Shown in pieces: positions 3,319-30,811 of a stretch of DNA of 64,000 nucleotides. A program made the translations under genes and the position numbers. Location of the stretch: NCBI GenBank assembly GCA_947492995.1, contig CANLOU010000007.1, forward strand, positions 6,900 to 70,899, given 5' to 3'. The notes under the pieces were generated by a model. That model ran no database searches, had not been told where the DNA came from, and saw nothing but the letters and a program-made list of their open reading frames with translations. This stretch comes from an uncultured Litoreibacter sp. GTDB taxonomy: Bacteria; Pseudomonadota; Alphaproteobacteria; Rhodobacterales; Rhodobacteraceae. The first letter of the stretch is position 1, and every line of letters begins with the position of its first letter.

Positions 3319-4521
3319 ATGAATTCAAACGCTAATATCGCGCAAACCAGCTCTATCGCCGCATCTATTGCGTCGAACGCTGCCCGCCTATCCGAAGCGC
3401 TTAACAACCATATGCGCAATAGCTTCCAGCCGGACAGCCGAAAAGCGCTACGTAAGTTTCATCCTGCGGAAGTATCAGAGCTCACCGGCATCAGTATGTC
3501 GAACCTTCGAACGCGGCATCAAGAAGGTGATTTCCCTGATGTAGAGACGGATTCCAGAGGTCGCAGGCTCTATACCGCCCAAGAGATTGACCAAATCCGC
3601 CATGTGATGGCAAAGACCGGTCGGAATGGCGAAACATACCTTCCCGGACGGCGCGAGAACGATGCCCTTCAGGTTATTTCTATAGTGAACTTCAAAGGCG
3701 GATCCAGCAAGACAACCAGCGCAATCCACTTGGCTCAACGCTATGCGTTGCGAGGCTATCGAGTACTTGCGATCGACATGGACCCACAGGCGAGCTTGAC
3801 CACGATGTTCGGGTACCGTCCTGAGATCGAGTTTGCTGAGAGCGGCACCGTTTACGACGCGCTAAAATACGAAGACCCTGTGCCGCTGAGCCAAGTCATC
3901 CGAAAAACATATTTTCACAACCTTGACCTCGCTCCGGCAGGTCTCTTGCTATCCGAGTACGAGACCGAAACTGCGTATGCGCTTCAGCACAAGATCGACC
4001 CGCCATTCACACAACGCCTTGCGATCGCTCTCGACGAGGTCGAAGCAGACTACGATCTCGTCATCATCGATTGCCCGCCTCAGCTTGGCTTCACAACAAT
4101 GACAGCTTTGTTGGCGTCTACCGGCCTTCTAATCACGGTTGTTCCTAGCATGTTGGATGTTGCATCAATGGCGCAATTCCTTGAAATGGCTGGAGAAACT
4201 GTCCAAACTCTCGAAGAGGCGGCGGGGCCTATCGACTGGAACTTCCTTAAGTTTTTGGTCGCTCGATATGAGCCAACGGACGTACCACAGTCACAAATGG
4301 CGGGTTTCTTACGTTCCATTCTCCTCGATCAGGTTTTGACCACACCGATGCTCAAATCCACAGCGATCTCTGACGCTGGCATGACACAGCAAACCATCTA
4401 TGAGCTGGATCCCTCGCAAGTCGTAAAAAAGACACTAACCCGCATATTAGAGTCTGTTAATGGCGTCGCGGATGAATTCGAAAAGACGATCCAGCAAGCT
4501 TGGGGAAGGGAAACTGACTAA
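3319..4521 (+). CDS. repA: RepA, ParA-type partition ATPase of a repABC operon
   Basis: 400 aa with the deviant Walker A VNFKGGSSKTTSAIHLAQ and DMDPQASLT. Directly followed by the repB and repC homologs. Confidence 0.95.
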   Translation: MNSNANIAQTSSIAASIASNAARLSEALNNHMRNSFQPDSRKALRKFHPAEVSELTGISMSNLRTRHQEGDFPDVETDSRGRRLYTAQEIDQIRHVMAKTGRNGETYLPGRRENDALQVISIVNFKGGSSKTTSAIHLAQRYALRGYRVLAIDMDPQASLTTMFGYRPEIEFAESGTVYDALKYEDPVPLSQVIRKTYFHNLDLAPAGLLLSEYETETAYALQHKIDPPFTQRLAIALDEVEADYDLVIIDCPPQLGFTTMTALLASTGLLITVVPSMLDVASMAQFLEMAGETVQTLEEAAGPIDWNFLKFLVARYEPTDVPQSQMAGFLRSILLDQVLTTPMLKSTAISDAGMTQQTIYELDPSQVVKKTLTRILESVNGVADEFEKTIQQAWGRETD

Positions 4522-5498
4522 TGGCCCGTAGAAACCTATTCCAGCCCCCTCCCCCACCCGATGCGGCCAGCACTGCGGCGCCGACCGAAGATCAAAAGTC
4601 GCGTTTCCCAAATACGGGCGCAATGAGCGGCGTGAAATCCACGCTGAAGGATGTTGCGAGCAATGCAGTGAGAGAAATCTCCGTTGATGTCATTGAAGAA
4701 GACGGCCCTAAGGACCGTCTCACTTTCACCGATGCCGATGTTGTAACATTGGCTGAGAGCATCAAGTCACACGGCCAACAAGTGCCGATTATGGTGCGCC
4801 CCATCGCGGACAAACCGGGACACTACAAGATTGTCTATGGTCGCCGCAGATTGCGGGCCTTGCGATCTCTCGGCCTCCCAGCAAAAGCACTCGTTAGGTC
4901 TCTTTCTGACGAAGAGGCGATACTTGCCCAGGGACAAGAGAACACTCAACGTTTGGATCCAAGCTTCATTGAAAAAGCGCTTTTCGCCACCGAGCTGGCT
5001 ACAAGCGGCTACGAACAAGCAATCATTCTAGATGCCCTCGCTGTGGACAAGCCAATGCTGTCGCGCATGACCAAAGTTGCACGGTCTATTCCAAAGTCAG
5101 TCATCGAGAAGATTGGCTCCGCGCATGGCATTGGACGCAGACGCTGGGAAGAGCTGGCAGACCAGTCGCGCAGCGATAGCGTCGATCTTGAACAGGTCAC
5201 CGCAACGCTTCAGTTTAATGCTGCCAAGAGCTCCGACGACCGCTTTGGCTTAGTCAGTGATGCCATTACTCAGGCGCTTAAATCTCAAGCGCCAGACAAA
5301 CCGGCTGCCCCCCCTACCCTCTCCATCAAGCTTAGCGATGGGACGGCTTTGGCCGAGGTAAAGGAAACGGCACGTGCTTTGACATTTAAGCTGTCAAAGT
5401 CTGATGCACCAGAATTTGCTCAGTGGATGCGCAACAACGCAGAAGCTGAGCTTACACGCCTCTATGAGGCGTGGCAGTCAGAGGAAAAGTCTGACTGA
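4521..5498 (+). CDS. repB: RepB, ParB-type centromere-binding protein
   Basis: 325 aa with ParB N-terminal motifs (HGQQVPIMVRP, YKIVYGRRRLRA). Its start overlaps the repA stop (ATGA-type junction). Confidence 0.9.
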   Translation: MARRNLFQPPPPPDAASTAAPTEDQKSRFPNTGAMSGVKSTLKDVASNAVREISVDVIEEDGPKDRLTFTDADVVTLAESIKSHGQQVPIMVRPIADKPGHYKIVYGRRRLRALRSLGLPAKALVRSLSDEEAILAQGQENTQRLDPSFIEKALFATELATSGYEQAIILDALAVDKPMLSRMTKVARSIPKSVIEKIGSAHGIGRRRWEELADQSRSDSVDLEQVTATLQFNAAKSSDDRFGLVSDAITQALKSQAPDKPAAPPTLSIKLSDGTALAEVKETARALTFKLSKSDAPEFAQWMRNNAEAELTRLYEAWQSEEKSD

Positions 5499-5725
5499 TA
5501 TCGACCGAGCAGTAAAACTTAAAAAAGGAGCACGACCAACAACCCAAAAAAGAAAGAGCCCCCCAAGGTTTCCCTAGGAGAGCCCAATCTGTTCTTTGCA
5601 CTTTCAGATTTACCAGCTTCTCCGCGCCAGTCAATAACAACCGATTCGGTTGACGAAGATTTGCGGCCTTTTTCCTGATTTTCAGAGATATCGGAGCCTT
5701 TCACATCAGGTTGTCGTGAAAAAAC

Positions 5726-6820
5726 ATGGCATTTATACAAGCAACTGCACCCACTGGGCTGCGGACCAGTGAAAGATTGTCCGCGGACAATTCCTTTCCA
5801 GAACGCCACATCGTTGTCGCAACGCTCCGAAAAGCAGCACCGCGACTCGGCCTCAGTGCATCGGTGATTTCGACTTTGGACGCGATGCTTTCGTGCCTCG
5901 CCCCAAAGCGCAACCACCACACCGTGTTTGCATCAAACTCAACTCTCACGTTCCGGCGCAATGGCATCTCAGACAGAACAATCAGACGCCACGCAGCGAC
6001 GCTTCAAGAAATTGGCCTGCTCGTTCGCCGTGACAGCCCCAATCGGAAACGATTCACAAAGCACAACAACCACGCCGGCCAAGCCCTTCGCTTTGGCTTT
6101 GACCTATCACCACTTTTCGAGCGTCTGCATGAAATTGCTTCAATGGCGGCTGAAGTCATGAAGGAACGAGAGCAAATTGACTATTTGCGTGCCAAAATCC
6201 GAGCGGCAGCCAATGCAAGCCTGGTCAACAACCCAAACGATGCGGTGGCTCTGAACGTCTTTCGTGTCCTCCGTCGGAAATTGTCCCTTAACGACTGTGA
6301 GAAAATTCTCTCAACCCTGCCAATCAAAGAAGTTGAGGCAGAGTCAGCAGATGATCAAACTACTAATTTAACGACTACATTGACCGCCAGTGACGGCCAA
6401 AATGTCCGGCACCATCATAAGTCAAATAAAGAACATATTGATAAAGAGAACATCCCACAAAAAAAACGAAACACTCCAATACCTTCAGATGCTCCAATCA
6501 CAATACCAGAATTGCTATCGGCATGTCCGGAAGCAGCCGAGTTTTTGCTGAGGAAAATAGAAACTGTTTCTGACGTCGTAGCTCACGCACGAACGTTGGC
6601 GCCAATGATAGGGATCAGCCCTCAAAGCTACGAAGCAGCTCATGAGCGACTGGGTGCGTTAAGAGCAGCGGCAACTGTTTGGGCCATCATGCAGTTCCAT
6701 GACAAAATCAAAACAGTTGGTGCGTATTTTAGATCACTAACCACAGGATCAAAGAGCGAAGGTTTTAGCCCAGAGAGACTCATCAGGCGTCTGGCTTTGG
6801 CGCAAAATCATGCGCCTTGA
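5726..6820 (+). CDS. repC: RepC replication initiator
   Basis: 364 aa with a RepC-like N-terminus (TAPTGLR...) and RHAATLQEIGLLVRRDSPNRKRF. It sits in the third position of the repABC cassette, after a 227-bp repB-repC gap. Confidence 0.9.
   Translation: MAFIQATAPTGLRTSERLSADNSFPERHIVVATLRKAAPRLGLSASVISTLDAMLSCLAPKRNHHTVFASNSTLTFRRNGISDRTIRRHAATLQEIGLLVRRDSPNRKRFTKHNNHAGQALRFGFDLSPLFERLHEIASMAAEVMKEREQIDYLRAKIRAAANASLVNNPNDAVALNVFRVLRRKLSLNDCEKILSTLPIKEVEAESADDQTTNLTTTLTASDGQNVRHHHKSNKEHIDKENIPQKKRNTPIPSDAPITIPELLSACPEAAEFLLRKIETVSDVVAHARTLAPMIGISPQSYEAAHERLGALRAAATVWAIMQFHDKIKTVGAYFRSLTTGSKSEGFSPERLIRRLALAQNHAP
5776..5791. promoter_or_regulatory. parS-like 16-bp palindrome (copy 1, inside the 5' end of repC)
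   Basis: ATTGTCCGCGGACAAT is a perfect palindrome. It fits the repABC parS pattern xTTNNCNGCNGNNAAx. Confidence 0.7.
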
Positions 6821-7339: not shown

Positions 7340-7810
7340 ATGCAAACAGAAGTATTGCGCGTGCTGCGAACTGAAGCTCAGTCGTGGTGGCGGCATCGAG
7401 AGCTTAGAAGAACTGATGACCTTGATGAGGCTTGTCGGCTGGAACGCCAAACTATCCTACGTGACCTTGGCTACCTTCGGACTGCGATCAACAACCCCAA
7501 CGCTTATGTCAGCTGCGGTGGGGGAGGGACCATTATTCACCTCGGGCTGGCAACAGTCTCGCTCTATGCCCCCGTTGAACGCTTCCCGCTCGCCAGCTTG
7601 GCCATCCGGCTTGGAACGCCACTGATCGACTACCGTCCCGTCCGCGACATCATCGCTTTCGCAAACCTGCCCAGGGTCACAATGGACGGCCGGATCGATC
7701 CAGAGCCTTGGACGGCCTCAAGCCGTGTATCGCTCCTGACATATATCGACGCTGCCGAACGCCTCGGCGCTCGTATCGTCAACGATCCGTGCGCAGGTCG
7801 CGCGACCTAA
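7340..7810 (+). CDS. Hypothetical protein (first gene of the co-oriented block)
   Basis: 156-aa ORF with AAGGAA 6 nt upstream of the ATG. Coding-like composition. Its end overlaps the long upstream extension of the ardC frame. No motif recognised. Confidence 0.6.
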   Translation: MQTEVLRVLRTEAQSWWRHRELRRTDDLDEACRLERQTILRDLGYLRTAINNPNAYVSCGGGGTIIHLGLATVSLYAPVERFPLASLAIRLGTPLIDYRPVRDIIAFANLPRVTMDGRIDPEPWTASSRVSLLTYIDAAERLGARIVNDPCAGRAT

Positions 7811-7851
7811 CCCAACCTTCCAAATCAACCCCAACCGAAAGGAGGCCAGCC

Positions 7852-8784
7852 ATGGCCCGTTCCCGCACGTCCAAATTCGACGCATCCGAAGCCATCACCA
7901 ATGAACTCATCCGCATCATCGAACGCGGCGTTCTCCCTTGGCGCAAGCCGTGGACCGCAGGCGGCAGTGCGCGTCCATTGCGCCACAACTCTGAACCCTA
8001 TCAGGGCGTGAACAACTTCCTGCTCACCATGCGCACGGTGGTGGCAGGATATACCTCTCCGTTCTGGATGACGGTGCCGCAGGCGAATACGCTTGGAGCT
8101 AAGATCCGGAAGGGCGAACGATCGTCTGTTGTTGTTTACTATGGCCAGAGCCGAACGCGGTCGGACGATGAGCAAGGCACCAATGATGGCGATACCGCAG
8201 AAGCGCGCGTGTTTCGGTTCCAGAAATCATACCGCGTGTTCAATGCCGACCAAATCGAAGGGCTGCCCGAGGCGTTCCATCCAGATCCGGCGCCAACGCC
8301 AGAACACGCAACAGATCAGGCTATCCCGCATATGCAGAGTTTCTTTGACGCTATCGATATCACGACAGTCTTTGCAGGGGATGAGGCGCGCTACAGTCCT
8401 CCCGTCGACAAGGTGTTCATGCCGGGTATCTCCCGCTTCAAGAACCCGCTGAACTTCTACGGGGTCTGGGCGCACGAGCTTGCCCATGCCACCAAGGCGC
8501 CCCATCGCTTGAATCGAGACTACGGTCTCAGCCGATTTGGCAACACAGCCTATTCCCGCGAAGAGATCGTCGCAGAACTGACGTCCTGCTTTCTGGGGCA
8601 GGAGCTTGGGTTCACTGCGCATACGCTAGAGCTGAACGCGTCGTATCTATATCACTGGCTGCGTGTGCTGCGCTCGGACAAAACCGCGATCTTCAAACAC
8701 GCGGCGGACGCCCAGAAGGCCTGCGATTATCTGATCGCGAGGTCGGAAGCGGGCAGGGCAGGGGCCACCGATCAGGCCGCTTGA
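7852..8784 (+). CDS. ardC: ArdC-like antirestriction protein (ssDNA-binding N-domain + zincin metalloprotease)
   Basis: The internal ATG at 7852 is preceded by GGAGG at 7841-7845. N-terminal LPWRKPW / NSEPYQGVNNFLL (DUF1738-like) and a C-terminal HELAHAT metalloprotease motif. Confidence 0.85.
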   Translation: MARSRTSKFDASEAITNELIRIIERGVLPWRKPWTAGGSARPLRHNSEPYQGVNNFLLTMRTVVAGYTSPFWMTVPQANTLGAKIRKGERSSVVVYYGQSRTRSDDEQGTNDGDTAEARVFRFQKSYRVFNADQIEGLPEAFHPDPAPTPEHATDQAIPHMQSFFDAIDITTVFAGDEARYSPPVDKVFMPGISRFKNPLNFYGVWAHELAHATKAPHRLNRDYGLSRFGNTAYSREEIVAELTSCFLGQELGFTAHTLELNASYLYHWLRVLRSDKTAIFKHAADAQKACDYLIARSEAGRAGATDQAA

Positions 8785-17642: not shown

Positions 17643-18371
17643 ATGTTCGCAGGAACCCTTACCAAAGCCGCCGACACCGCAGCCGCAGTCTTCACCGGCA
17701 CAATCCACAACACGAAGTTCGACATCGCGATCCAGCTGGAAACGCGCCCGAAGATGTCCGAGCGCAGCCCGGACTTCGACGTTACCGCCGTCAATAAGTC
17801 CGGTCGCAAGGTGCGTGTCGGCACGGCTTGGAACGAAACCGGAAACACCAGTGGTAATCCCTACATTTCGATGCAGATCGATGTTGGTCTCGGCCCGTTC
17901 CGCGTAAATGCGGTGCAAACGCAGGAAGTCCGCAAAGCCAAGAGCGAAGACTTCGAGATCATCCCGTTGGTCTCAAACGGCACGATGAAATCCGGCTCAA
18001 TCTCAGGTGAGCTGACGGCGATGGATGCTGACAACGCCTTTGCAGGTTACATTGCCAACATGATGTTTGATCTGGACTTCATGCTCATCGAGAACGACTA
18101 CAAGACCGAAGAAACTCATCCCGACTACCGGATCGAAGTCAGCTCGCCGAAGGGCAAGGCGATCCGCGTCGGTTCCGCTTGGATGGCGAAAAGCACCCGG
18201 ACCGGCAATGATTATCTGTCGTTGCTGATCAACACGCCTGACGGTGATTTGCGGGTCAATGCCGTGCAGAACGAAGAGCAACGGGGTGGGCAGACGTTCT
18301 CGATCATTCCGTTTGTGCAGAGCGGGGATGAGCAGCCGGACGCAAGCGGTGGGTTGTCACTGGTTGCTTGA
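17643..18371 (+). CDS. Tandem double DUF736 protein
   Basis: 242 aa made of two homologous halves: VRVGTAWNETGNTSGNPYISMQIDVGLGPFRVNAVQ and IRVGSAWMAKSTRTGNDYLSLLINTPDGDLRVNAVQ. This matches the DUF736 pattern (GAAW...G..YLS..LD). Confidence 0.75.
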   Translation: MFAGTLTKAADTAAAVFTGTIHNTKFDIAIQLETRPKMSERSPDFDVTAVNKSGRKVRVGTAWNETGNTSGNPYISMQIDVGLGPFRVNAVQTQEVRKAKSEDFEIIPLVSNGTMKSGSISGELTAMDADNAFAGYIANMMFDLDFMLIENDYKTEETHPDYRIEVSSPKGKAIRVGSAWMAKSTRTGNDYLSLLINTPDGDLRVNAVQNEEQRGGQTFSIIPFVQSGDEQPDASGGLSLVA

Positions 18372-18400
18372 TCAGATCGTGACTATCGACAGACAGGGCA

Positions 18401-18433
18401 GGGGAGCCGCGGCAACGCGGTTCCCCTTTTTTT
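18401..18433 (+). terminator. Strong intrinsic terminator
   Basis: GGGGAGCCGCG, loop GCAA, CGCGGTTCCCC (one G-U pair), then T7 at 18427-18433. A second hairpin, GACGAGA-GAAT-TCTCGTC, lies at 18443-18460. Confidence 0.75.
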
Positions 18434-18531
18434 GTTTCTGCTGACGAGAGAATTCTCGTCTTAGACGTGCATGGACGACCAAATTCTACACTTGGCTGGG
18501 ATATCACTTCGAACATGCTAAACAGTTAGCT

Positions 18532-21500
18532 ATGAATACTAATCTTACTAAATTGTGCCTCTGGGCCTTCAACAAGTTCATCAAGATAGCAGAAACACTG
18601 CGCTTGAAATCCGCTTCGCCCGTAGGGCCATCAAAATTCGTCGATTTAGCTCCGACTGATGAGGCTGACCAAGGAGGAGTATATTCGGCTGCTTTGAAGT
18701 TCGCGACCGACAGTCCGGACGTGTCAAACATCGCGCTCACTGGGCCTTACGGCTCCGGCAAGAGCAGCATCATCCGATCTTTCCTGAAATCCTATCCTCG
18801 CGAAGCCCTGCATATCTCCCTCGCAGCCTTCTTGCCGGAAGCAGGTGATGAGCGACGCACAGTGACCAAACAGGAAATTGAGCGAAGTATCCTTCAACAA
18901 CTTCTATATGGCGCAGATTCAAACAAACTGCCCCTCTCGCGCTTTAAACGTATCCAATCACCGGGATTCTGGTCGATCTTCCGATCTTTCTACATTCTTT
19001 CCGGACTGCTCGCTCTTTGGCATACGTTCTACAATCGCGCAGCAATTTTTGAGGGATCGTATTTCGAGCCTTTCGATCTTACGAACTGGTTCAATATATC
19101 CTCAGCCGTTTTCGCTCTAATCTTCCTTTGGTCTGTGATCCATCACTTTTACGTCGCCAGCTTCGGTGTGTCTCTCAAGAGCATTTCGCTGAAGGACATT
19201 GAGATGCGGCCGTCTTCGGAAGACCAAGATTCAATCCTCAATCGTCATCTGGATGAGATCGTCTACTTCTTCCAATCTACGCGCTACGACCTCGTGGTCG
19301 TGGAAGATCTCGATCGCTTTGAAGATGCCGACATCTTCGTTACACTTCGCGAGATCAACAGTCTCGTGAACAGCAATGTAGGCGTGAAACGCCAAATCCG
19401 ATTCTTATACGCGCTGCGCGACGACATGTTCGCCAACACTGACCGGACCAAGTTCTTTGAATTCATCATCCCCGTTATTCCGATTATTAATAGCTCGAAC
19501 TCGATTGATATGGTGCTCGCCCAAGGTGAGCGGCTGGAACTGGACGGAAGGCTAGATCAGCAATTCCTGCGAGAGGTGTCTCGCTACCTCAGCGATCTCC
19601 GGCTGATCCATAACATTTTCAACGAGTATGCGATTTACGTCGCAAACTTGGAAACTGACGGTGAGAACGTACTTGACGCCACAAAGCTTCTTGCGGTGCT
19701 AATCTATAAGAATGTCTATCCTAGGGATTTCGAACAGCTTCATCGGGGCGAGGGGCATCTCGCTGGAATTTTGGGGCGTAAGGACGAGATCATCGCCACT
19801 CTTGAACGAGGCTATCGATCCGAGATCGCTGAACTCGAACGCGATATTGCAGCGGCTGAACAGCAAATTCCGAAAGATCGGCGCGAGCTCAACCGCATTT
19901 ATGCGATGGCCCTCCTCGAAACGCTTCCCGCCAATACCATTGGCGTTGGCAGGACCGTACAAGAGCGCATTTCGCTCACAAATTTATCCGAGCACGCAAA
20001 TTTCGAAGAAATTATCGCGACACCGAACCTCTACTATCATAGTGTCAATGGTCGCGCGCGGCATGACAATTCTAGCTTGGCAGACAGCGTAAACTCCGAA
20101 GCAAGTTATGGTGAACGGGTGCGAAGCATCGAACAGAAAGCGGACGCACACAAGAAGGCTGCACATCGGCGAATCTCCGTTCTGAAAAGCGAGATCAAGA
20201 CTATTCGAACGAGCAAGTTTAACGCCTTGCTGCGCTCAAGCGCGTTAGAAATCGAGAACCTCTTCGAAAATCTGGGTGAGGGCGGCGAACTCGCCCGGTT
20301 TTTGCTTCTGGAAGGCCATCTCGATGATAGTTACTACCAGTATACCTCCTTGTTCCACACTGGACGGCTTTCACCGAACGACAACAAGTTCCTGATTCAG
20401 ATAAGGGCTTTCCATACACCTGAACCCCTGTTTCCGATCGACAACCCGAATGAAGTTATCGCCGGAATGAGGGAGGACGATTTTGGCCTTGATTATGCGC
20501 TGAACGTTCGACTTGTCGACGCGCTCTTGGAGAGCGGGGAGCATAAGAACCTACTGGAAAAGGTTTTTGGATATCTTTCAAATGAGTTTCCCAATCAGCA
20601 GGAGTTCTTCGAGGCCTACTACGCGACGGGATTGCACATTAGCGAATTCATGAGGCAGTTCATTGACGCTTGGCGCGGTTTCGTACCCGCGGCAATTGAG
20701 GATTCCTCCGCAATTTTGCATATATCACGCCTCATCGAGCATCTTTCGCCAACCATGCTGGCCCGGGAACGCGAGGAGCACCCCGAGCTGCGAGCGTTCG
20801 CGGCCAACAATCTCCGGGACCTTCTCGACCTGTTAGAGGGGATGGACCCGGGCAAGCTTGAAGAGTTGCGGATCGAAACGAAGGATCTTGCTGCCATCGA
20901 TGAATATCCGAACGTTGCGCGCAAACTGTACGAGTTCGGTCATTACTGCCTGAACGCTGCTAACTTTGACTACATTTTCGGCTCTATCCTCGGAGTAGAA
21001 ACTGGCCCAAACTTGCGTAAGCGACATTACTCGAGGGTTCGAAACTCTGGAGCCGAACCGCTCCTCAACCGGGTGGAAAGCGATCTTTCAGCGTACTTCA
21101 CGAACGTACTGTTGGAGATGAATGAGGACGATGAGGAGGATATCGAAGCGATATTGGCCGTGATGTCACACGATCAGCTCGATGCCGACGATGTCGAAGC
21201 GTTCGTCCTACGACAAACCAAGCTTCTGCCAACACTGGAAGAAATACCCGAGCGCTATCAGCCCATGGTGCTCCGTGGGACACAGATCGCTCCTACTTGG
21301 TCCAACTGTCTCGCCTTCGTCCAGTCTGAAAATTTCGAGGGCGACGCTCTCATAGCTTTCCTTGGCGATGATGAGGTCCGTGCCGCTCTCTTGAAAACTC
21401 CAGTTCCAGAACCAAAAGAAGCACTCCCTCTCCGTCAGTTCCTCATCGATGCAGAAGGTCTCCCCGATAGCGTCTATCGTGATTATATCCGGGCGCTTCC

Positions 21501-22134
21501 TAAGGAATTCAAGGCATTTCCCAATGCAGTAAGCGCCGGCAAACGTCGAATACTCATCGAAGAGCGACGCGTCACCTTTAACGCCGAGAACTTGGCCACG
21601 CTTGACGGCGAGGCTGATATGCAAACGGCATTCGTCGCTCAGAATATCGCCTCCTATCTTCGCGACCCCAGCTCGTATTCGATTGACGATAGCTTCCGCG
21701 AGAGATTGCTTGCCACCGATATCTCGGACGATGAAAAGCGGGCGCTCATTGGTTTGATGGACTTGAGCGCTCTTCCCAACCTTCCAGAGCGCGCTGGCAT
21801 TGTCGGGCCAATCCTTTTGCGGGCAAATGGCGCGCTGCCTTCACTCACCCCTGAGATCGTCAAGGCAGTTGTTAAGAATACCAAGCCAGTCGCCACCCAG
21901 GTCCAGTTGCTCAATCTCCTCCATGAAACACTCGACACGAACGATATTCGTGAGGTCTTGGGACAGCTTTCTTACCCATATTCGAAAATCCAAACAGGAT
22001 ATGCTCGTCCCACTCTCAAGAGAACGAATGAAAACAGCGAACTTGTTAGGTGGTTGGACGAGCGCAACATCATCTCTTCAGCAGGGACACCGTTCTGGTC
22101 AAACGATATCATGGTTAATTTATATCGGTCATAA
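18532..22134 (+). CDS. YobI/KAP-type P-loop NTPase with membrane insertion (1200 aa)
   Basis: Walker A LTGPYGSGKSSI, then two hydrophobic helices (FWSIFRSFYILSGLLALW, ISSAVFALIFLWSVIHHFYV) inserted before Walker B DLVVVEDLDRFED. FVTLREINSLVN and FFEFIIPVIPIINSSNS follow. The roughly 750-aa helical C-terminus has no recognisable effector motif. Sampled lines are 43-50% GC, against roughly 58-73% in the flanks. Confidence 0.75.
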   Translation: MNTNLTKLCLWAFNKFIKIAETLRLKSASPVGPSKFVDLAPTDEADQGGVYSAALKFATDSPDVSNIALTGPYGSGKSSIIRSFLKSYPREALHISLAAFLPEAGDERRTVTKQEIERSILQQLLYGADSNKLPLSRFKRIQSPGFWSIFRSFYILSGLLALWHTFYNRAAIFEGSYFEPFDLTNWFNISSAVFALIFLWSVIHHFYVASFGVSLKSISLKDIEMRPSSEDQDSILNRHLDEIVYFFQSTRYDLVVVEDLDRFEDADIFVTLREINSLVNSNVGVKRQIRFLYALRDDMFANTDRTKFFEFIIPVIPIINSSNSIDMVLAQGERLELDGRLDQQFLREVSRYLSDLRLIHNIFNEYAIYVANLETDGENVLDATKLLAVLIYKNVYPRDFEQLHRGEGHLAGILGRKDEIIATLERGYRSEIAELERDIAAAEQQIPKDRRELNRIYAMALLETLPANTIGVGRTVQERISLTNLSEHANFEEIIATPNLYYHSVNGRARHDNSSLADSVNSEASYGERVRSIEQKADAHKKAAHRRISVLKSEIKTIRTSKFNALLRSSALEIENLFENLGEGGELARFLLLEGHLDDSYYQYTSLFHTGRLSPNDNKFLIQIRAFHTPEPLFPIDNPNEVIAGMREDDFGLDYALNVRLVDALLESGEHKNLLEKVFGYLSNEFPNQQEFFEAYYATGLHISEFMRQFIDAWRGFVPAAIEDSSAILHISRLIEHLSPTMLAREREEHPELRAFAANNLRDLLDLLEGMDPGKLEELRIETKDLAAIDEYPNVARKLYEFGHYCLNAANFDYIFGSILGVETGPNLRKRHYSRVRNSGAEPLLNRVESDLSAYFTNVLLEMNEDDEEDIEAILAVMSHDQLDADDVEAFVLRQTKLLPTLEEIPERYQPMVLRGTQIAPTWSNCLAFVQSENFEGDALIAFLGDDEVRAALLKTPVPEPKEALPLRQFLIDAEGLPDSVYRDYIRALPKEFKAFPNAVSAGKRRILIEERRVTFNAENLATLDGEADMQTAFVAQNIASYLRDPSSYSIDDSFRERLLATDISDDEKRALIGLMDLSALPNLPERAGIVGPILLRANGALPSLTPEIVKAVVKNTKPVATQVQLLNLLHETLDTNDIREVLGQLSYPYSKIQTGYARPTLKRTNENSELVRWLDERNIISSAGTPFWSNDIMVNLYRS

Positions 22135-22989
22135 GGCGGTTGCCTATGCTTTCGGCTCCTTCGCGCGCCCTAATGCGCCCAAGTTTCGGCATTTGACGGG
22201 TGTATGTACTGTAATTGATCGGAGATGCAGGTTTCTGCATTTTCACTGTAATGGTCAAATTTCCGAAACAAGGAGAGAGCGGGCTTTCATTCGTTGTTAT
22301 ATGGATTTCGGCTATGAGCCGAAATTTTGCGATTGATTTCACTTCTTCTCCCAAATTCAACCATCGTGCACCCCCCAGCATCAGCAATTATGGACTTGAA
22401 GCGGACATTTATGTGAGCGGCGCAATTAGGTCTGTCGGCAGTTTAGCCTAACGGCCCCACCCTGCTCGGCTTCGCGTGTCGCGGGTAAGAACGGCCCTGC
22501 GGCCCGTCGCGCATGCGGCCATGCGGCCTTACCGCGGCGTCGGCGCGTGGGTCCCGGTTTGCCCGTCTCACGAGCACGGCGGGTCTCGGCCACGCCTGCG
22601 GTTTCCACTCTGGTCTGTTTTGCTAAAGCAAAACGATCCCGCCGCTCCATCCGCCTGCGTGTCCCGCTCCCGCCGCTTGCCTGCTCGCGTCGGGCAAACC
22701 TCGCGTCAAAACACACACACATGAGTATGGAAGCATATCCTCCGGATGGCCCCCAAATCAGCCCGCCTCAAGGATCGCAAAACTTTTCGGCGAGGGTCAT
22801 GCGGGTTGCGAGGTCTATCGCGCGCGTGAGGTTGCGCTTGTTGTGAGCAGCTGCGCTTGGAAAACTTTTACGCCCAGCAAGCTGGCGGCTGCGCCGTCCC
22901 TGACCCGGACAGATTCGGTGAACCAGAAATCGGCCATGCCCCCACAATCACGTGGCGGTCCTCAAACTCAAACATCTGGAGATGAACAC

Positions 22990-23919
22990 ATGGCCTACGA
23001 TCAAGCGACAACATACGAGACAATCGAACTCTTCGGCCTTACGGAGAAAGATGCACACCTGCCAATCCCGCAGGACGATATGCTGAAAGACAGCATCATC
23101 CGCGAAGCCTTCGAGACCCTGCTCGGGCAATTGCGGAATACTGGACTTGAAGGAGAGATCGAACCTCTCGCGCACGGGTTGGCGACAATCCTGCAGCGCC
23201 GCAAGGTTGCCCTCGGCAAAGAAGCCGACCGCACAACTGACAAGATAGGTGCACTGGCAAAATGCCACGATGGATCAGAGATCGCAGAGACGGCTCTGGA
23301 AGAGGCACAAGCGCGCTTCGTGCAATTGCGCGAGATAGTGGACGCCATTGAGACGATGGGGGAGGCGGCAGCGGAATGCTACGAGGTCGAGACCGGCAAT
23401 GCCTTCATCCCGGCAGCGGGATCGCGCGCCAGCGTTCGGGCGCAAGAGACGGGTGCCGTCTTCGAAGCCAAGCAGCTTCTGGAGCAGCATGATCGTGAGA
23501 CCGCCGCCAAGTCGAAAGTCGAGGGAGTTCCTCTGATTGTCTCGGGAGCGACGGACTGGACTGACATCGACGTCATCTTCCAGACACTCGATAAGGTGCG
23601 CGACCGCATTAAGCAAAACCGCAATCAAGATATCTTCATCTGCCACAAAGGCGGCAAGCATGGGGCGGAAATGATCGCGGCGCGGTGGGCGCGTGCGCGA
23701 GGTATCAATCAAGCGCGCTTTGATCCGCGTTGGTCCGCACATGGACGCGCAGCACCCTTCAAGTGCAACGACGAGATGCTGGACGATAAGTTCGCCGCAA
23801 CTGGAGTTGTTCTCTTCGGCGGCAACGGGGTCGCAATGAACCTCGGCCAGAAAGCCGAAACGAAAGGACTGACGGTGATGCGGGTCGCGGATCCGGCCAA
23901 GACATCGGGCGAGGCATAA
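22990..23919 (+). CDS. DUF2493 (SLOG-like) domain protein with an unknown ~190-aa N-terminal domain
   Basis: ATG at 22990 with GGAGA 7 nt upstream. C-terminal LIVSGATDWTDIDVIF...ICHKGGKHGAEMIAARWARARGI...FDPRWSAHGRAAPFKCNDEML...VLFGGNGVAMNL matches the DUF2493 pattern. Confidence 0.7.
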   Translation: MAYDQATTYETIELFGLTEKDAHLPIPQDDMLKDSIIREAFETLLGQLRNTGLEGEIEPLAHGLATILQRRKVALGKEADRTTDKIGALAKCHDGSEIAETALEEAQARFVQLREIVDAIETMGEAAAECYEVETGNAFIPAAGSRASVRAQETGAVFEAKQLLEQHDRETAAKSKVEGVPLIVSGATDWTDIDVIFQTLDKVRDRIKQNRNQDIFICHKGGKHGAEMIAARWARARGINQARFDPRWSAHGRAAPFKCNDEMLDDKFAATGVVLFGGNGVAMNLGQKAETKGLTVMRVADPAKTSGEA

Positions 23920-25940: not shown

Positions 25941-26295
25941 TCGCAGTACCTGTGCGGTGACAGGGCCGCCAGCCAGCCTCAAGGGGGCCATCCCCAAAAA
26001 CCTTTCGGCAAGAGCCTTCACGGTTTTTGCGGCGGAGAATTGGCAAGCAATTCTGGCCTCCCTTGACCCTGTCTGTCGGCCCTGTCGGTTGAGTTCTGTC
26101 CCGCCCCATCGCTTCTGTCCGAACATTACATGTTCAGACAGACCTCAGGTGCGGGTCCTGTTGAGGGTGGCTGATGTTGGAGCCTGCGGCTGTTGTTGGT
26201 TGGCGCCCTCTCGGGCGCGGCCTCGCACCTGCGGTGCTTGGGCCGTGAAACGGAATACAAGGCTGCCTGCGCACTAATTCACCGTAAGTATATTA

Positions 26296-26323
26296 TTGAC
26301 AAATTAGTATAGTTTCGTATGTT
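26296..26323 (+). promoter_or_regulatory. Candidate mobC promoter with conserved box
   Basis: TTGACA (26296-26301), 16-nt spacer, TATGTT (26318-26323), 50 nt before the mobC ATG. The spacer and -10 form TATAGTTTCGTATGTT (26308-26323), which recurs upstream of the virB operon. The region is bracketed by the 12-bp inverted repeat ATACAAGGCTGC (26255-26266) / GCAGCCTTGTAT (26328-26339). Confidence 0.45.
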
Positions 26324-26372
26324 GGGTGCAGCCTTGTATGAAGGTGGCAGGAAATAGGGGGTCTTTCTTCGC

Positions 26373-26966
26373 ATGTCTCGCTCAAAACGTCTCACTGGTG
26401 CGCAACGCATGGAGATCGTTCGCGAAGCTGCGGGAGGTGTGACTGGCGCTGAGCTTGCGGCGCGTTTCGATGTCACGCCACGTACGATCCAGTACACGCT
26501 AAAGAGCGATGCTGAGCGGCAGGCGGATACTCATGTGCCGACCGCAGCTGTGACGGTCAAGCTGACACCAGAGGAGCTCAGTGCCTTTGATGAGGTCTTG
26601 GCCGCCGTGGGTATCGAAACGCGCTCAGAGGGGCTGAGGCGGCTCATACAGGCCACTGGAGGGGTATTCGTGCCTGATGCTCAGCTTGCCGCCGAGATGG
26701 CGCGCTACAGAGCCTCTCTGCACGAGGTGGGCAATGGCGTCACGCAGGTCGCCAAACAGATGCAGAAGGCCAACCGGATGGGGCAGGGGCCTGCAGATAT
26801 CTCGCATGTCGAGTTCTCTGAATTGCGGCTTGCGCAGATACGCGGGTTAGCGCGGTTCATTCTGGATTCCGCTGATGAGATCGACTTGCTTGTGCGCCGC
26901 CGGCGGGATGCAATGCAGCTGGAAGCCAGCGCGACACTGAGGAAGTTTGCCCATGCCGCTGAATGA
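26373..26966 (+). CDS. mobC: MobC-type relaxosome accessory protein with N-terminal HTH
   Basis: N-terminal HTH (GVTGAELAARFDVTPRTIQYTLK), an RHH-like VKLTPEELSAFDEV, and the MobC-like LHEVGNGVTQVAKQMQKAN. Overlaps the relaxase start. Confidence 0.75.
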   Translation: MSRSKRLTGAQRMEIVREAAGGVTGAELAARFDVTPRTIQYTLKSDAERQADTHVPTAAVTVKLTPEELSAFDEVLAAVGIETRSEGLRRLIQATGGVFVPDAQLAAEMARYRASLHEVGNGVTQVAKQMQKANRMGQGPADISHVEFSELRLAQIRGLARFILDSADEIDLLVRRRRDAMQLEASATLRKFAHAAE

Positions 26967-28818
26967 TGCAGTTGATGCCGTTACGGGCGAAGTGTTTCGA
27001 GATGGCTGGAGCCGGATTCGGGGATCCATGCAGGGCCTGCATGCGTCTCGACAAAAGCAGCTTATTCGGGCTGCTGCAGGTCATCGCGCGGCGGTCTTCA
27101 AGGCAATCCGTAGTGGGGGCACCCACACCAAATCGCAGCTGTCCAATCAGCTTGGATACCTCACCACGAAGTCCACCCATATCGTCGACAGCAGTGGGTT
27201 CTTGGACGGCAAATCCAAGCTCGATAATCGAGAGATAAAGGACCTCACCGAACGGTTAGCAAAGCGTTGGAGTGCAGGGTTCAAACCCAAACTTGGGCAG
27301 ACGACGCATATGCTGATGTCCTTCCCGATTGGTACCAGCGGAGAGGATGTTCGCGACATCGCCTCGGATGTGGCCGAGCGGTTCTTCCAGAACGATGAAG
27401 GGCATTTTGATTATATCATCGCGGTGCACGAAGACCGCGATCACCCTCATGCACACATCGTTCTGAACCGCCGATCCCAAGAGGGTGAGTTCTTCTATTT
27501 GGCGCGGGATCACCGATTCAACTATGACGACTTCCGTCTGGCCATGGTTGAAGAGGCTGAGAAATACGGTGTCCGATTAGAGGCAACGCGGCGGATTGAC
27601 CGTGGTGTTGTCCATTACCCAGCCAGAACCCGCGAGGTCTATGCCGCGAAAGCCGAAGGGCGGGAGGCTGAGCCGCGTCCGCGCGTCGGCGCAGATCTGG
27701 ATTGTGCGCTGGAAGAGATCGCGAACACCCGCATCATTTATCAGTCCCTCGCTGCAGAGGCCTCGAGCGAGAACCACGAAGATATTGCCGATGCGTTGCT
27801 GCGTGCCGGAGAAATGCTGGCCAAGGGCGGACTGCTGAAGATGGAAGGAGAGGTCTACATGGCTGAGGAGCAATCATTTGATGATCTGAAGGTTCGCTAC
27901 GGCGAGCAGGTGGAGCGCGTTCAGGGTATGATCGCGGAGAAACCGGAGGCTGAGCGTCCACGGTTGGAACGCAGTCTCAATGACATCCAAGCACGGCTTG
28001 CGCATATGCAGCCGCTTGGCCTGCGGTCCCATACGCTGTCGGAGGCTCCCTCAGAGGGCGGGGTCTATTCTGGAATCAATATCGACCGAGAGCAATTGCA
28101 GCGGTTGCAAGAGCCCGAGGTGCGCGCGCAGATCGACACGGCTTTGCGCGGGACTGGGATCCGTTCGGGCGTTGTGATCGCACGGATGGAAACTGGCGCG
28201 CAGAACGCGGCCCTTGAGCGTCAATGGATCGCTGATGACCTCGCTCGCGTCGCTGAAACGGATGATCTCAATCTGGAGCGGCGCGCAGACTTAGAAACCG
28301 CCCGAGAAGCTCTGAACCGCGCCCATGTCCAACTTGGGATCATATTGGAGCGCAACCAAGTCTTGCGAGTGGATGGAGTGATCGATGATGCGGTTGATGA
28401 TCGTCTAGACATTCGGGACAGTTTGACTGCAGAGCGCACCGAGGAAGCGCCAATTGCCAGCGATGTCGTCATTGATGACGAGATCAGGCGTGTCATAGCG
28501 CACGAGCGAGACGGCAATCTATCATCTCCGTTCGAAGCTGACGAAGATCGGCAAAGCTATCGTGACGCCGTCGAGCGCGAGCTGGACGAGGGCCAGCTTG
28601 ATCGTTTGAAGGCAGGGGATGCAGATGTTCTGAAAGATCAGATAGAGGATCGCCTCGACCGGCTCTATGTCGCCAAGTCCTATCTGCAATCCGACGCAGC
28701 GACGGCCAATTCTGAAGCCGCCCGCGCGGTGGTCGAAGAGATCGCAGATCGCGAATACGAATTACACCGCGCCGATACCATCGACTCTGAGACAGATCGC
28801 GGCCCAACCCATGGGTAA
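26953..28818 (+). CDS. Relaxase / mobilisation nuclease (MobA/VirD2 family)
   Basis: Histidine triad region HFDYIIAVHEDRDHPHAHIVLNRR. The ATG at 26953 (or TTG at 26947) overlaps the mobC end. Long acidic C-terminus. Confidence 0.85.
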   Translation: MPLNDAVDAVTGEVFRDGWSRIRGSMQGLHASRQKQLIRAAAGHRAAVFKAIRSGGTHTKSQLSNQLGYLTTKSTHIVDSSGFLDGKSKLDNREIKDLTERLAKRWSAGFKPKLGQTTHMLMSFPIGTSGEDVRDIASDVAERFFQNDEGHFDYIIAVHEDRDHPHAHIVLNRRSQEGEFFYLARDHRFNYDDFRLAMVEEAEKYGVRLEATRRIDRGVVHYPARTREVYAAKAEGREAEPRPRVGADLDCALEEIANTRIIYQSLAAEASSENHEDIADALLRAGEMLAKGGLLKMEGEVYMAEEQSFDDLKVRYGEQVERVQGMIAEKPEAERPRLERSLNDIQARLAHMQPLGLRSHTLSEAPSEGGVYSGINIDREQLQRLQEPEVRAQIDTALRGTGIRSGVVIARMETGAQNAALERQWIADDLARVAETDDLNLERRADLETAREALNRAHVQLGIILERNQVLRVDGVIDDAVDDRLDIRDSLTAERTEEAPIASDVVIDDEIRRVIAHERDGNLSSPFEADEDRQSYRDAVERELDEGQLDRLKAGDADVLKDQIEDRLDRLYVAKSYLQSDAATANSEAARAVVEEIADREYELHRADTIDSETDRGPTHG

Positions 28819-30811
28819 GGCGCGACTGGTCATCGGCGTCATCTTGGTCACGCTTGTGGCTGTGGCAATGGGGTATGCACTGGCGTCGGCCGTTCTCACC
28901 TTCAAAGATCTGGGGTTCCAAGCTGAGATAGATTTCTTCTACATCGCTGAGAATTACCGCGCGATCCGAGTCATTCGACCCGATGATTTCCAGCTGATCA
29001 ACTTCATCATGGGCGGGGCAGGGGTGGCGGGTCTGATGATGAGCCTTGCCATGTCTGGCTCAGCACTGACACGGTTTGGCTACACCCACTGGCAAACCCA
29101 ACGCGAAATGAAGCGCAATGGCTTCTTTGGAAAACCCGGCACAGGCTTTGTCATCGGCAAGCTTGGCAAGCCGTCCAGTCGCGCGCCTCTTGTCTGCTCG
29201 CAAACCTTCCCGCATGCTTTGATCGTCGCCCCGACGGGCCGCGGTAAGACAACAGGCTTTGTCATTCCGAACCTGCTGACCTGGCAGGGGTCTGCTGTCG
29301 TTTTGGATGTGAAAGGCGAGTGCTTTGAGGCCACTGCGCGGCATCGGGCGTCCCAAGGTGACGAGGTGTTTCGCTTTGCGCCAACAGATTGGGAAGACAA
29401 GCGAACGCACCGCTACAATCCCCTTCTGCGCATCTTTGAATTGACGGATCCGGCACGCCAGCAGATGGAGCTGCAACTCTTGGCGACATTGTTCCTTCAA
29501 AACGACAATGACCGCGTGCAGGGGCTTCTCAAGGGTGGGATCGATCTCTTTGTTGCCGCTGGCCTGCTGGCGTTTCAACGTAAGAAACCAACCCTTGGCG
29601 AAATCTACCGGATCTCTGCCTCAGGCGGGAACAAGCAGAAGGAGTATCTCGCACGGTCTCACGAGGTCGGGAACAAGGCTGCAAAACTGATCTTCACGCG
29701 GCTTGCTTCGACCAACAACGACACGCTGACGTCCTATGTTTCGCTTTTGATGACATCGGGCCTCGATCAATGGCAAAACCCAGCGATTGATGAGGCGACT
29801 GAGGTGTCGGACTTTGACTTCCGGACCATCCGCAAGAAGCCGTTCAGTGTTTACCTGGTTGTTCAGCCATTGATGGTGAAACCGCTGGCACCGCTGATCC
29901 GGCTGTTCTTCTCAGATTTGTTGTCCGCATTGCAGGACAAAGAACCGGGCGCAGATGAGCCTTGGCCAGTCATGATCATGCTCGATGAGTTCAACCGGCT
30001 CGGCAAGATGCCGATCGTCGCGGAAAGCATCGAGGTCTTGCGGCACTATCATGGCCACTTGGCGGTGGTCACACAGACCATCCCCGCTATTGATGAACTC
30101 TACGGCGAGAACACGCGGCGCGCGTTGCAGGGTAACGCGGGCATCAAGCTCTACCTGACGCCGTCAGATGAGAAGACCGTTGAGGAATTGAGTAAAGCCG
30201 TCGGTAAGACCACCAAGACCGTTGTGACGCGATCGCGCTCTGTTGGGAAGAACCCATTTGAAGGCCGCAGTCAGTCGGAGCGCACGGAAGAGACGCCGCT
30301 TTTGCCAGAGGACGAGGCAAGGCGGCTGCCGCTTGATGAGATTGTGGTCGTCGTCGACGCCCAGATGCCGGTACGCGCGAAGCGGGTGGTGTACTTTGAG
30401 GACCCGTTTTTTAAGAAGATTCATGGTGCGCAGGCTGGGGAATTACCATTTCCGCAGACACCCAAGGACCCAGTTCTTGGAAACGCCACAGCGCTTAGTC
30501 GAAAAGCGAAGCCAAAAGAACCTGTGGGCAACGGAGAGAATGTGAAAGTTGGTTCCGTCACACACACGTCTACCACTCAAAAGGGGCAGCAACCAAAGCC
30601 ACGAAAAACTGTTGGCCGAATTGCGCGGGCATCGGTTTTGGCTGATGATCAGCGGCAGTTTGAAATGGACTTCAGTAACCAGTCGGACCTCTCAGTTGAT
30701 GCACCTGCAACAAGTGAGGTTGCGCAGGTGGAAGAGGCACTTGATGATCTGGATAAACTTGAGGAACAGATGAAGGACGTGGCGCAAACCGAAGCGACGT
30801 TGTTAGCTTAA
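28811..30811 (+). CDS. virD4: Type IV coupling protein (VirD4/TraG family)
   Basis: The ATG at 28811 overlaps the relaxase stop. N-terminal TM helices, Walker A APTGRGKTTGFVIPN, Walker B VMIMLDEF. Confidence 0.9.
   Translation: MGKARLVIGVILVTLVAVAMGYALASAVLTFKDLGFQAEIDFFYIAENYRAIRVIRPDDFQLINFIMGGAGVAGLMMSLAMSGSALTRFGYTHWQTQREMKRNGFFGKPGTGFVIGKLGKPSSRAPLVCSQTFPHALIVAPTGRGKTTGFVIPNLLTWQGSAVVLDVKGECFEATARHRASQGDEVFRFAPTDWEDKRTHRYNPLLRIFELTDPARQQMELQLLATLFLQNDNDRVQGLLKGGIDLFVAAGLLAFQRKKPTLGEIYRISASGGNKQKEYLARSHEVGNKAAKLIFTRLASTNNDTLTSYVSLLMTSGLDQWQNPAIDEATEVSDFDFRTIRKKPFSVYLVVQPLMVKPLAPLIRLFFSDLLSALQDKEPGADEPWPVMIMLDEFNRLGKMPIVAESIEVLRHYHGHLAVVTQTIPAIDELYGENTRRALQGNAGIKLYLTPSDEKTVEELSKAVGKTTKTVVTRSRSVGKNPFEGRSQSERTEETPLLPEDEARRLPLDEIVVVVDAQMPVRAKRVVYFEDPFFKKIHGAQAGELPFPQTPKDPVLGNATALSRKAKPKEPVGNGENVKVGSVTHTSTTQKGQQPKPRKTVGRIARASVLADDQRQFEMDFSNQSDLSVDAPATSEVAQVEEALDDLDKLEEQMKDVAQTEATLLA

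Follow-up and report, generated by a model that had tools for sequence, protein, structure and literature searches.

We analysed a window of 64,000 nucleotides (nt) from an uncultured Litoreibacter sp. (contig CANLOU010000007.1, positions 6,900 to 70,899), which belongs to a conjugative roseobacter-group plasmid of the RepABC type with genes for a type IV secretion system. At positions 18532-22134 of the plus strand, the window contains an uninterrupted open reading frame (ORF) of 1200 codons for a protein of 1200 amino acids (aa), which we call the tmn-like gene. We consider it likely that this gene is a functional single-protein anti-phage system of the Tmn family, and that the plasmid carries it as exchangeable cargo at a hotspot of defence genes between DUF736 and DUF2493. 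An earlier sequence-only reading of the same DNA had found this gene and had suggested several roles for it, among which the single-gene defence factor is the best-supported option by homology to Tmn.

The relationship to Tmn was detected with profile and pairwise comparisons. The Tmn model of PADLOC (PDLC02220) matches the window protein with an E-value of 4.4e-74 (248 bits), where aa 39-644 align to profile positions 29-684 of 1273. As E. coli Tmn reference we used WP_064055658, an IncF/F-plasmid protein of 1273 aa that the Prokaryotic Genome Annotation Pipeline (PGAP) names 'anti-phage transmembrane ATPase'. This reference matches the PADLOC Tmn model from end to end (2057 bits) and its numbering agrees with that of Tmn-25 at 15 of 15 mutated positions. 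With BLASTP, the window protein has 29% identity to the reference over aa 39-648 (E 8e-70). When comparing a profile of 62 homologues of the window protein to the reference with hhalign, we obtained a probability of 100% and an E-value of 4.9e-57 over 942 collinear columns, and the collinearity extends to position 1053 of the profile and to residue 1091 of the 1273 in Tmn. Thus, the homology goes deep into the C-terminal arm.

Furthermore, all 12 residues that are essential for defence in Tmn-25 are conserved in the window protein, and most of them are invariant or nearly so across the alignment of the 62 homologues. In Tmn-25 and window numbering, respectively, these are G66/K67 and G76/K77, Y262 and Y245, D276/R279 and D259/R262, N297 and N280, K325/F326 and K307/F308, R374 and R357, F506 and F491, and Y541/R544 and Y526/R529. 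Judged by these alignments, the window protein is a divergent relative of Tmn and an example of a known system, not a new kind. Tmn is a validated single-protein membrane anti-phage system with a proposed mechanism, and its tested variants are anti-phage (PMC13001434). The view of the sequence-only reading that KAP/YobI NTPases have no demonstrated mechanism is thus outdated. Ten clades of the Tmn family and a tree of 785 Tmn sequences have been published, with the E. coli reference type in clade Ib (PMC13001434).

The domain searches agree with the YobI part of the earlier assignment to a KAP/YobI type. The Pfam family YobI-ATPase (PF20693) is matched with an E-value of 1.9e-121 by aa 51-410, which cover profile positions 1-362 of 363, whereas KAP_NTPase (PF07693) reaches only 15.1 bits (E 0.014) and remains under its gathering cut-off of 20, so that strict KAP membership is not supported. 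In the NCBIfam scan of the protein, no family was found at E <= 1 besides generic P-loop noise; the search for the NCBIfam YobI model that had been proposed earlier thus gave no confirmation. A sequence search of the PDB with the window protein gave no match. Close homologues are named 'YobI family P-loop NTPase' in NCBI and UniRef. The family is large, with over 3700 matching proteins at E <= 1e-5, and relatives that align in full (1201-1203 aa, 54-56% identity) occur in Alpha-, Gamma- and Deltaproteobacteria. The motif order that had been read from the sequence, in which Walker A and Walker B of the P-loop domain enclose two transmembrane (TM) helices, was recovered, with hydrophobic segments at aa 146-167 (mean Kyte-Doolittle hydropathy 0.98) and aa 186-211 (1.42).

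The gene is intact and under purifying selection. In comparison to three orthologues, the ratio of nonsynonymous to synonymous substitution rates (dN/dS) is 0.13-0.15 for the whole gene, 0.09 for the NTPase domain and 0.14-0.20 for the arms. In more distant clade members, the NTPase domain has 76% identity and the distal arm, which is the most variable region, 41%. This agrees with the variable sensor arm that has been published for Tmn, which is also described as having no conserved operon (PMC13001434).

The structure predicted with AlphaFold2 (AF2) has a mean predicted local distance difference test score (pLDDT) of 77, with 80-94 in the arms. It comprises an alpha/beta NTPase core, helices at aa 146-167 and 183-221, a coiled coil, a solenoid and a terminal alpha/beta unit. 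In this model, the architecture corresponds to the layout of proximal and distal arms described for Tmn (PMC13001434), and the distal arm would by analogy be the presumed trigger-sensing domain. Foldseek against the PDB returned only weak matches to ARM/HEAT-type solenoids (She4p, PP2A-A, importins, CAND1), none of them with E <= 0.001. The part that follows the NTPase comprises ~790 aa and is nearly all helical in the AF2 model, compared to the roughly 750 aa of helical C-terminus noted by the sequence-only reading. This C-terminus had been described as lacking a recognisable effector; in the model of Tmn it serves as the sensor, and the role of effector falls to the membrane NTPase hub.

For Tmn-25, a decameric membrane complex has been described in which the solenoid arms bind the phage protein RIIB, and ATP turnover and Mg2+ export lead to plasmolysis (PMC13001434). 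We take the steps of a mechanism for the window protein by analogy from E. coli Tmn-25; the window protein itself provides the sequence and structural prerequisites only. The two helices inside the P-loop domain would tether a hub of several NTPase subunits to the inner membrane, and the cytosolic proximal (coiled-coil) and distal (ARM/HEAT-like solenoid) arms would bind an early protein encoded by the phage. Binding of this trigger would stimulate ATP hydrolysis coupled to the export of an ion (Mg2+), the cell would plasmolyse and its ATP pool would collapse, which would arrest phage replication; systems that sense ATP depletion may perhaps be triggered as well. For the window protein in its own host, activity against phages, oligomeric state, exported ion and the nature of the trigger are thus inferred. 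The trigger is almost certainly not the T-even RIIB, because the sensor arm cannot be aligned by BLAST and RIIB is a protein of T-even phages.

Table 1. Coordinates of the tmn-like gene, its cassette, the slot borders and backbone genes in the window.
Feature	Position	Strand	Details
repA, repB, repC	3319-6820		
ArdC	7708-8784		
DUF736 family gene, backbone, left of slot	17643..18371	+	Pfam PF05284, E 3.6e-24; so annotated in all related plasmids
Intrinsic terminator (hairpin and T-run) after DUF736, left slot border	18400..18431	+	Hairpin 18400-18427; 12 pairs, 9 of them G-C; conserved in 8 plasmids, followed by total divergence
Upstream part of the cassette, putative promoter and 5' leader	18460..18531	+	Homology in other contexts starts at 18460 (L003), 18484 (L001) and 18490 (L005)
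tmn-like gene	18532-22134	+	1200 aa
Walker A, GPYGSGKSS (core GPYGSGKS, aa 71-78)	18742..18768	+	aa 71-79; G76/K77 equivalent to essential G66/K67 of Tmn-25; invariant in 62 homologues
Two predicted TM helices and short loop, between Walker A and Walker B	18967..19194	+	aa 146-167 and ~183-221; hydropathy, AF2, alignment to TM segment of E. coli Tmn
Walker B region LVVVEDLDRFED	19291..19326	+	aa 254-265; D259/R262 equivalent to essential D276/R279 of Tmn-25; invariant in homologues
Predicted proximal arm: coiled-coil helices 409-464 and 526-560 around small beta domain 469-512	19762..20451	+	aa 411-640; AF2 pLDDT ~80-87; contains F491 and Y526/R529
Predicted distal arm: alpha-solenoid of short helix repeats (~640-1150)	20452..22131	+	aa 641-~1150; AF2 pLDDT ~85-94; collinear with E. 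coli Tmn to ~aa 1030 in hhalign
Predicted small C-terminal alpha/beta unit	within 20452..22131	+	aa ~1151-1200; AF2
AT-richer filler, unique, with two local hairpins	22148..22445	.	Matches none of 96 loci compared
Ultra-conserved structured non-coding block, right slot border	22446..22989	+	~550 nt, upstream of DUF2493 gene; alignment A7 (L014-L089)
DUF2493/YAcAr (SLOG-family) gene, backbone, right of slot	22990..23919	+	Pfam PF10686, E 1.1e-19; DUF2493 genes of 930 nt in relatives
VirD2-type relaxase	26947-28818		
VirD4 coupling protein	28667-30811		

A tblastn search of PLSDB found 642 plasmid records that match the window protein, of which 467 are from Escherichia and 480 are conjugative. 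In the PGAP annotation, the copies from E. coli bear the name 'anti-phage transmembrane ATPase'. Among the hits is also a second and more abundant group on plasmids of E. coli, Klebsiella and Salmonella (H46-H89), which matches aa 27-415, i.e. the YobI domain, alone with ~33% identity and whose genes are labelled 'pcar' or hypothetical. From these partial matches, the group looks like a YobI-family lineage that is distinct from the one annotated as anti-phage ATPase and possibly shorter.

To define the insert, we compared the window to 165 plasmids of Roseobacteraceae/Paracoccaceae that share its backbone according to megablast and are mostly typed as MOBP/MPF_T and conjugative, eight of which were studied in detail. 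In these eight plasmids, the homology of the backbone stops at 18431/2 and restarts at 22445-22460; the gene is therefore a true insert between DUF736 and DUF2493. The island that had been proposed at 18401-22440 has nearly identical borders, and the suggested indel at the DUF736-DUF2493 junction is found exactly there. Neither is the gene a conserved part of this position in all relatives, since a YobI gene occurs in none of the 80 species-level loci with DUF736 and the tmn-like gene occupies the slot in one of the 165 related plasmids, that of Roseovarius sp. S88. The strong terminator that had been placed at 18401-18433 was recovered by our scan and forms the left border. On the other side, the hairpins at 22225-22240 and 22305-22325 exist but fail terminator criteria, and the folding of the surrounding 311 nt is not better than that of shuffled sequences (z -0.24). 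An antisense ORF of 90 aa at 22115-22387 has no Pfam match.

The unit that is common to different genomic contexts consists of the ORF with ~70 bp upstream and ~10 bp downstream. Cassette copies share a conserved block, TT.GAACATG, ~20 nt ahead of the ATG. A scan for sigma-70 promoters gave fewer matches than in shuffled sequences and no consensus upstream of the gene, for which no recognisable Shine-Dalgarno sequence was found either. At the borders of cassette and slot, terminal direct or inverted repeats were limited to chance-level matches of 13-17 nt; transposon-like ends were found neither at the borders nor in five-copy alignments of the cassette ends, and no recombinase lies next to the gene within the window. 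The neighbours of the cassette homologues are unrelated across eight contexts. They include, for instance, a helix-turn-helix (HTH) 'transposase', IS66 and other transposases, integrases and toxin-antitoxin clusters, and TniQ with an SNF2 protein and an Eco57I-like methylase. That the neighbours differ in every context agrees with the absence of a conserved operon in Tmn, and the earlier observation of a gene with no partner extends to a solo cassette.

The copy of Roseovarius sp. S88 is located on plasmid NZ_CP146070.1 (L001, 6912-10578), where the same cassette is found in the same slot with 92.7% DNA identity, inverted relative to the backbone. It is surrounded by other filler DNA on both sides and accompanied by an extra hypothetical gene of 183 aa. 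The comparison of the two copies points to independent capture or inversion, without recognisable recombination sites.

The base composition of the gene had been taken as a further sign of an island. The gene has 51.1% GC and its 60-nt lines range from 45 to 58% (10th-90th percentile), whereas the flanks average 58-59% with lines of 50-68%, the directly flanking genes have 56-60% and the window has 55.4%. The sequence-only reading, which gave 43-50% against 58-73% for sampled lines, was therefore right in the direction of the difference and overstated its size. Across the 64 kb, 2.2% of the 3.6-kb windows are as low in GC as the gene. Codon usage, which had been named as a second check, is not unusual: GC at third codon positions (GC3) is 0.585 (z -0.34) and synonymous codon usage is ordinary. 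GC at second codon positions (GC2) is 0.37, the lowest among 39 genes (z -2.4), and the orthologue in Roseovarius S88 has a GC2 of 0.364 in a flank of 63.5% GC. We thus conclude that the GC dip reflects amino-acid composition and not foreign codons. Foreign codon usage as evidence for an island is ruled out by the ordinary GC3 and codon distance. Composition is hence a weak argument for an island, whereas the comparison to related plasmids is decisive. The same pattern of low GC2 and typical GC3 was observed in orthologues on replicons of 59-64% GC. Dips that are driven by GC2 can thus imitate signatures of 'foreign DNA'.

We then surveyed the slot (equivalent to 18432-22445 of the window) in L006-L010 and L012-L091. 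Of 80 species-level loci with DUF736, 52 have DUF2493 within 10 kb. In these 52 loci, the inserts span ~0.8-9.0 kb and contain 227 ORFs in 137 clusters. With PADLOC, we detected GajA and GajB of Gabija (L077), a type IIG restriction-modification (R-M) enzyme (L080, E 1e-250), IetS with an ATPase (IetS in L085 and four other loci and in plasmids H13 and H15; IetAS in L085 and L007), QatA (L047), an LmuB-like ATPase (L050) and the TIR protein 'Aga_TIR-PNTD' in three loci, with TIR proteins in L041 and L006; a CBASS cyclase, capP and RmrA were matched as well. The cargo differs from plasmid to plasmid, for instance a TIR protein with DUF2188 and an HTH/ImmA pair, an S8 peptidase with an ATPase, or RadC with a thermonuclease, and it is found on either strand, often opposite to the backbone. 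The slot is thus a general cargo site that is strongly enriched for immunity genes. Two very large proteins in the slot have no PADLOC match at E <= 1e-8, one of 1314 aa (L079, 12753-16694, plus strand) and one of 1165 aa (L088, 6701-10195, minus strand; present in two loci), which are candidates for undescribed defence genes. In a literature search for a DUF736/DUF2493 hotspot, neither domain was mentioned within the searchable paper collection, and this bounded hotspot of roseobacter plasmids may be new.

The right border of the slot is a non-coding block that has a mean column identity of 88% in 32 species, compared to ~80% for neighbouring coding DNA, and whose hairpins contain 11 base pairs with compensatory changes. 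Rfam, searched with the whole window and with 18300-23100, gave no family. The block could be a leader or non-coding RNA, a promoter or priming site on single-stranded DNA, or a recombination site, and it is possibly new. The start of the DUF2493 gene that follows was set from the relatives, in which ATGGC is conserved; the ORF list gives a longer ORF that begins with GTG at 22843.

Several observations weigh against our interpretation of the gene as a functional Tmn-type defence system. The PADLOC Tmn model aligned over its N-terminal half alone, identity to a tested Tmn is only 29% in this half, and the distal arm is undetectable by BLAST. The TM helices are predicted, with the first one being only moderately hydrophobic, and the AF2 confidence for the NTPase and TM part is mediocre (pLDDT 30-80). 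The mechanistic model stems from one 2026 preprint with an 11.6 Å map (PMC13001434). Finally, the slot also carries non-defence cargo, such as adh with a GAF protein, a PEMT methyltransferase with a cation transporter, and VOC with SRPBCC, and location alone is therefore no proof of defence.

A different role for the gene might be read from its position on the plasmid. Upstream of the slot, ArdC is accompanied by genes for a ParB-like protein, for DUF6927, for a strawberry-notch methylase/helicase of 1421 aa and for DUF736, and to the right of the slot DUF2493/YAcAr is followed by an SH3-SNase protein. Directly upstream of the operon of an HTH gene (26373) and the relaxase gene (26947), at ~26290-26370, an AT-rich core TATATTATTGACAAATTAGTATAG is flanked by a 12-nt inverted repeat, ATACAAGGCTGC ... 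GCAGCCTTGTAT. From its sequence, this region is a plausible candidate for the origin of transfer (oriT) or a promoter region. Since relaxases usually sit in the lagging region beside oriT (PMC11541004), the leading region would plausibly include the slot, at ~4-8 kb from the presumed oriT and on the side away from the relaxase. The leading-region location claimed earlier is hence plausible in this respect. A nick motif of the RP4/Ti type (ATCCTG) near the relaxase is absent on the plus strand, and three matches to CAGGAT are located inside the SH3-SNase gene. At the other end of the plasmid genes listed in Table 1, a 511-aa Fic/DOC-domain protein (994-2529, minus strand) adjoins the repABC module.

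With such a location, the gene could serve conflict between plasmids or other mobile elements, or the establishment of the plasmid, being expressed early from the leading region and sensing a competitor protein or stabilising the plasmid by punishing loss or invasion. It is co-oriented with ArdC, the ParB-like, the strawberry-notch and the DUF736 genes in the window, and Tmn and Gabija in the leading region have been suggested to aid the maintenance of E. coli plasmids. The orientation expected of a leading-region gene is nevertheless not kept: the cassette is inverted in Roseovarius sp. S88, which argues against obligatory early strand-specific expression, and the cargo of the slot has no consistent strand. 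The terminator moreover insulates the gene from upstream transcription, close homologues reside on chromosomes and on non-conjugative replicons, and the tested Tmn variants are anti-phage (PMC13001434). We therefore regard this role as improbable.

It is quite unlikely that the protein is a YobI-family membrane NTPase with a non-immune role, such as ion homeostasis or envelope signalling, which hitch-hikes as cargo. Metabolic and transport genes do occur in the slot, defence has so far been assayed in few members of the YobI family, and the Mg2+ export reported for E. coli Tmn (PMC13001434) makes a transport role conceivable. However, the gene occurs as a solo cassette beside transposases, integrases, toxin-antitoxin and R-M-like genes, its distribution is patchy, its sensor-like arm is the most variable region, and the residues on which defence by Tmn-25 depends are retained, also within the arm.

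The sequence-only reading had also considered an anti-defence or early-expressed factor, for which we found no support given the inverted copy in S88 and the frequent location of slot cargo on the opposite strand. Such a factor would shield the incoming plasmid from the immunity of the recipient, as the neighbouring ArdC would. ArdC, the ParB-like protein and the strawberry-notch methylase/helicase are indeed of the anti-restriction or establishment type, and leading regions are enriched in anti-defence genes. On the contrary, the homology of the window protein to a defence protein spans its entire length, and it is a membrane protein of 1200 aa, unlike the small cytosolic anti-defence proteins that are known. 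With an orientation that is not conserved and an absence from all 80 related species loci, with presence in a single one of the 165 related plasmids, we find this role hardly credible. That the gene is a decaying, inactive remnant left after insertion, to which the lack of a recognisable Shine-Dalgarno sequence and sigma-70 promoter might point, is effectively excluded because of the purifying selection seen against three orthologues, with an uninterrupted frame and all catalytic residues intact.

Work on Tmn has until now been confined to Enterobacteriaceae. The gene extends the family to a clade with many members, proteins of ~1200 aa from marine Alpha-, Gamma- and Deltaproteobacteria, whose divergent sensor arm is material for studying how trigger specificity is encoded. 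The link between Tmn and conjugative plasmids, and the presence of Gabija in the same class of loci, recur here in plasmids of an unrelated lineage. As far as the gene is concerned, we have mainly arrived at a correct annotation and not at a discovery, whereas the sharply bounded slot can be mined for new systems, as illustrated by the two cargo proteins of more than 1100 aa that PADLOC does not match. A more speculative and, in our estimation, rather unlikely idea is that the slot is a dedicated platform for the exchange and expression of cassettes in the part of the plasmid that is transferred first, taking up promoter-bearing solo defence cassettes in either orientation by an unrecognised mechanism, and that this Tmn clade senses an unknown protein of marine phages. 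If so, the immune system that the incoming plasmid supplies to its new host would differ from lineage to lineage.

When comparing the window protein to known systems, E. coli Tmn is the one with which it shares most of the features described here. Both have a P-loop domain of the YobI type, in which two TM helices separate Walker A from Walker B, the residues essential in Tmn-25, a proximal arm of coiled coil and alpha/beta domain (in the window protein as predicted), and an alpha-solenoid as distal arm. They are also similar in length (~1200 compared to 1273 aa), are encoded by a single gene without an operon partner, and often reside on conjugative plasmids, including the leading region; Tmn, together with Gabija, has already been described in the leading region of E. 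coli conjugative (F) plasmids. They differ in that the N-terminal halves have 29% identity and the distal arms can be aligned by profile alone. In addition, the hosts of the window clade are marine Alphaproteobacteria, while relatives of 54-56% identity are found in Gamma- and Deltaproteobacteria, and the trigger almost certainly differs.

The similarity to YobI of Bacillus subtilis comprises the whole domain profile of 363 positions; PF20693 covers the NTPase domain alone, however, and neither the arms nor a function. KAP NTPases (Kidins220/ARMS, PifA; PF07693) are likewise membrane-associated P-loop NTPases of signalling and defence with helical repeats, and Tmn was first named a KAP NTPase. 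In the window protein, the match to PF07693 is below threshold, and KAP proteins are treated as a family of their own, whose four TM helices are not part of the P-loop domain (PMC13001434). With Avs and other bacterial STAND NTPases, the proposed system would share the principle of one large polypeptide in which a repeat sensor recognises a phage protein and activation depends on the NTPase. The window protein belongs to a different NTPase family, is predicted to be embedded in the membrane and has no separate effector domain; Avs4 is among its weak Foldseek matches, which are not significant. Lastly, the slot resembles the defence hotspots of other mobile elements, such as those of P2/P4, the leading-region islands of plasmids and the slots of integrative and conjugative elements, in that a fixed site holds unrelated defence systems in each relative. 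What distinguishes it is its place, namely the junction of DUF736 and DUF2493 on Rhodobacterales plasmids with a type IV secretion system, and the nature of its two borders, of which one is a terminator and the other the ultra-conserved structured non-coding block.

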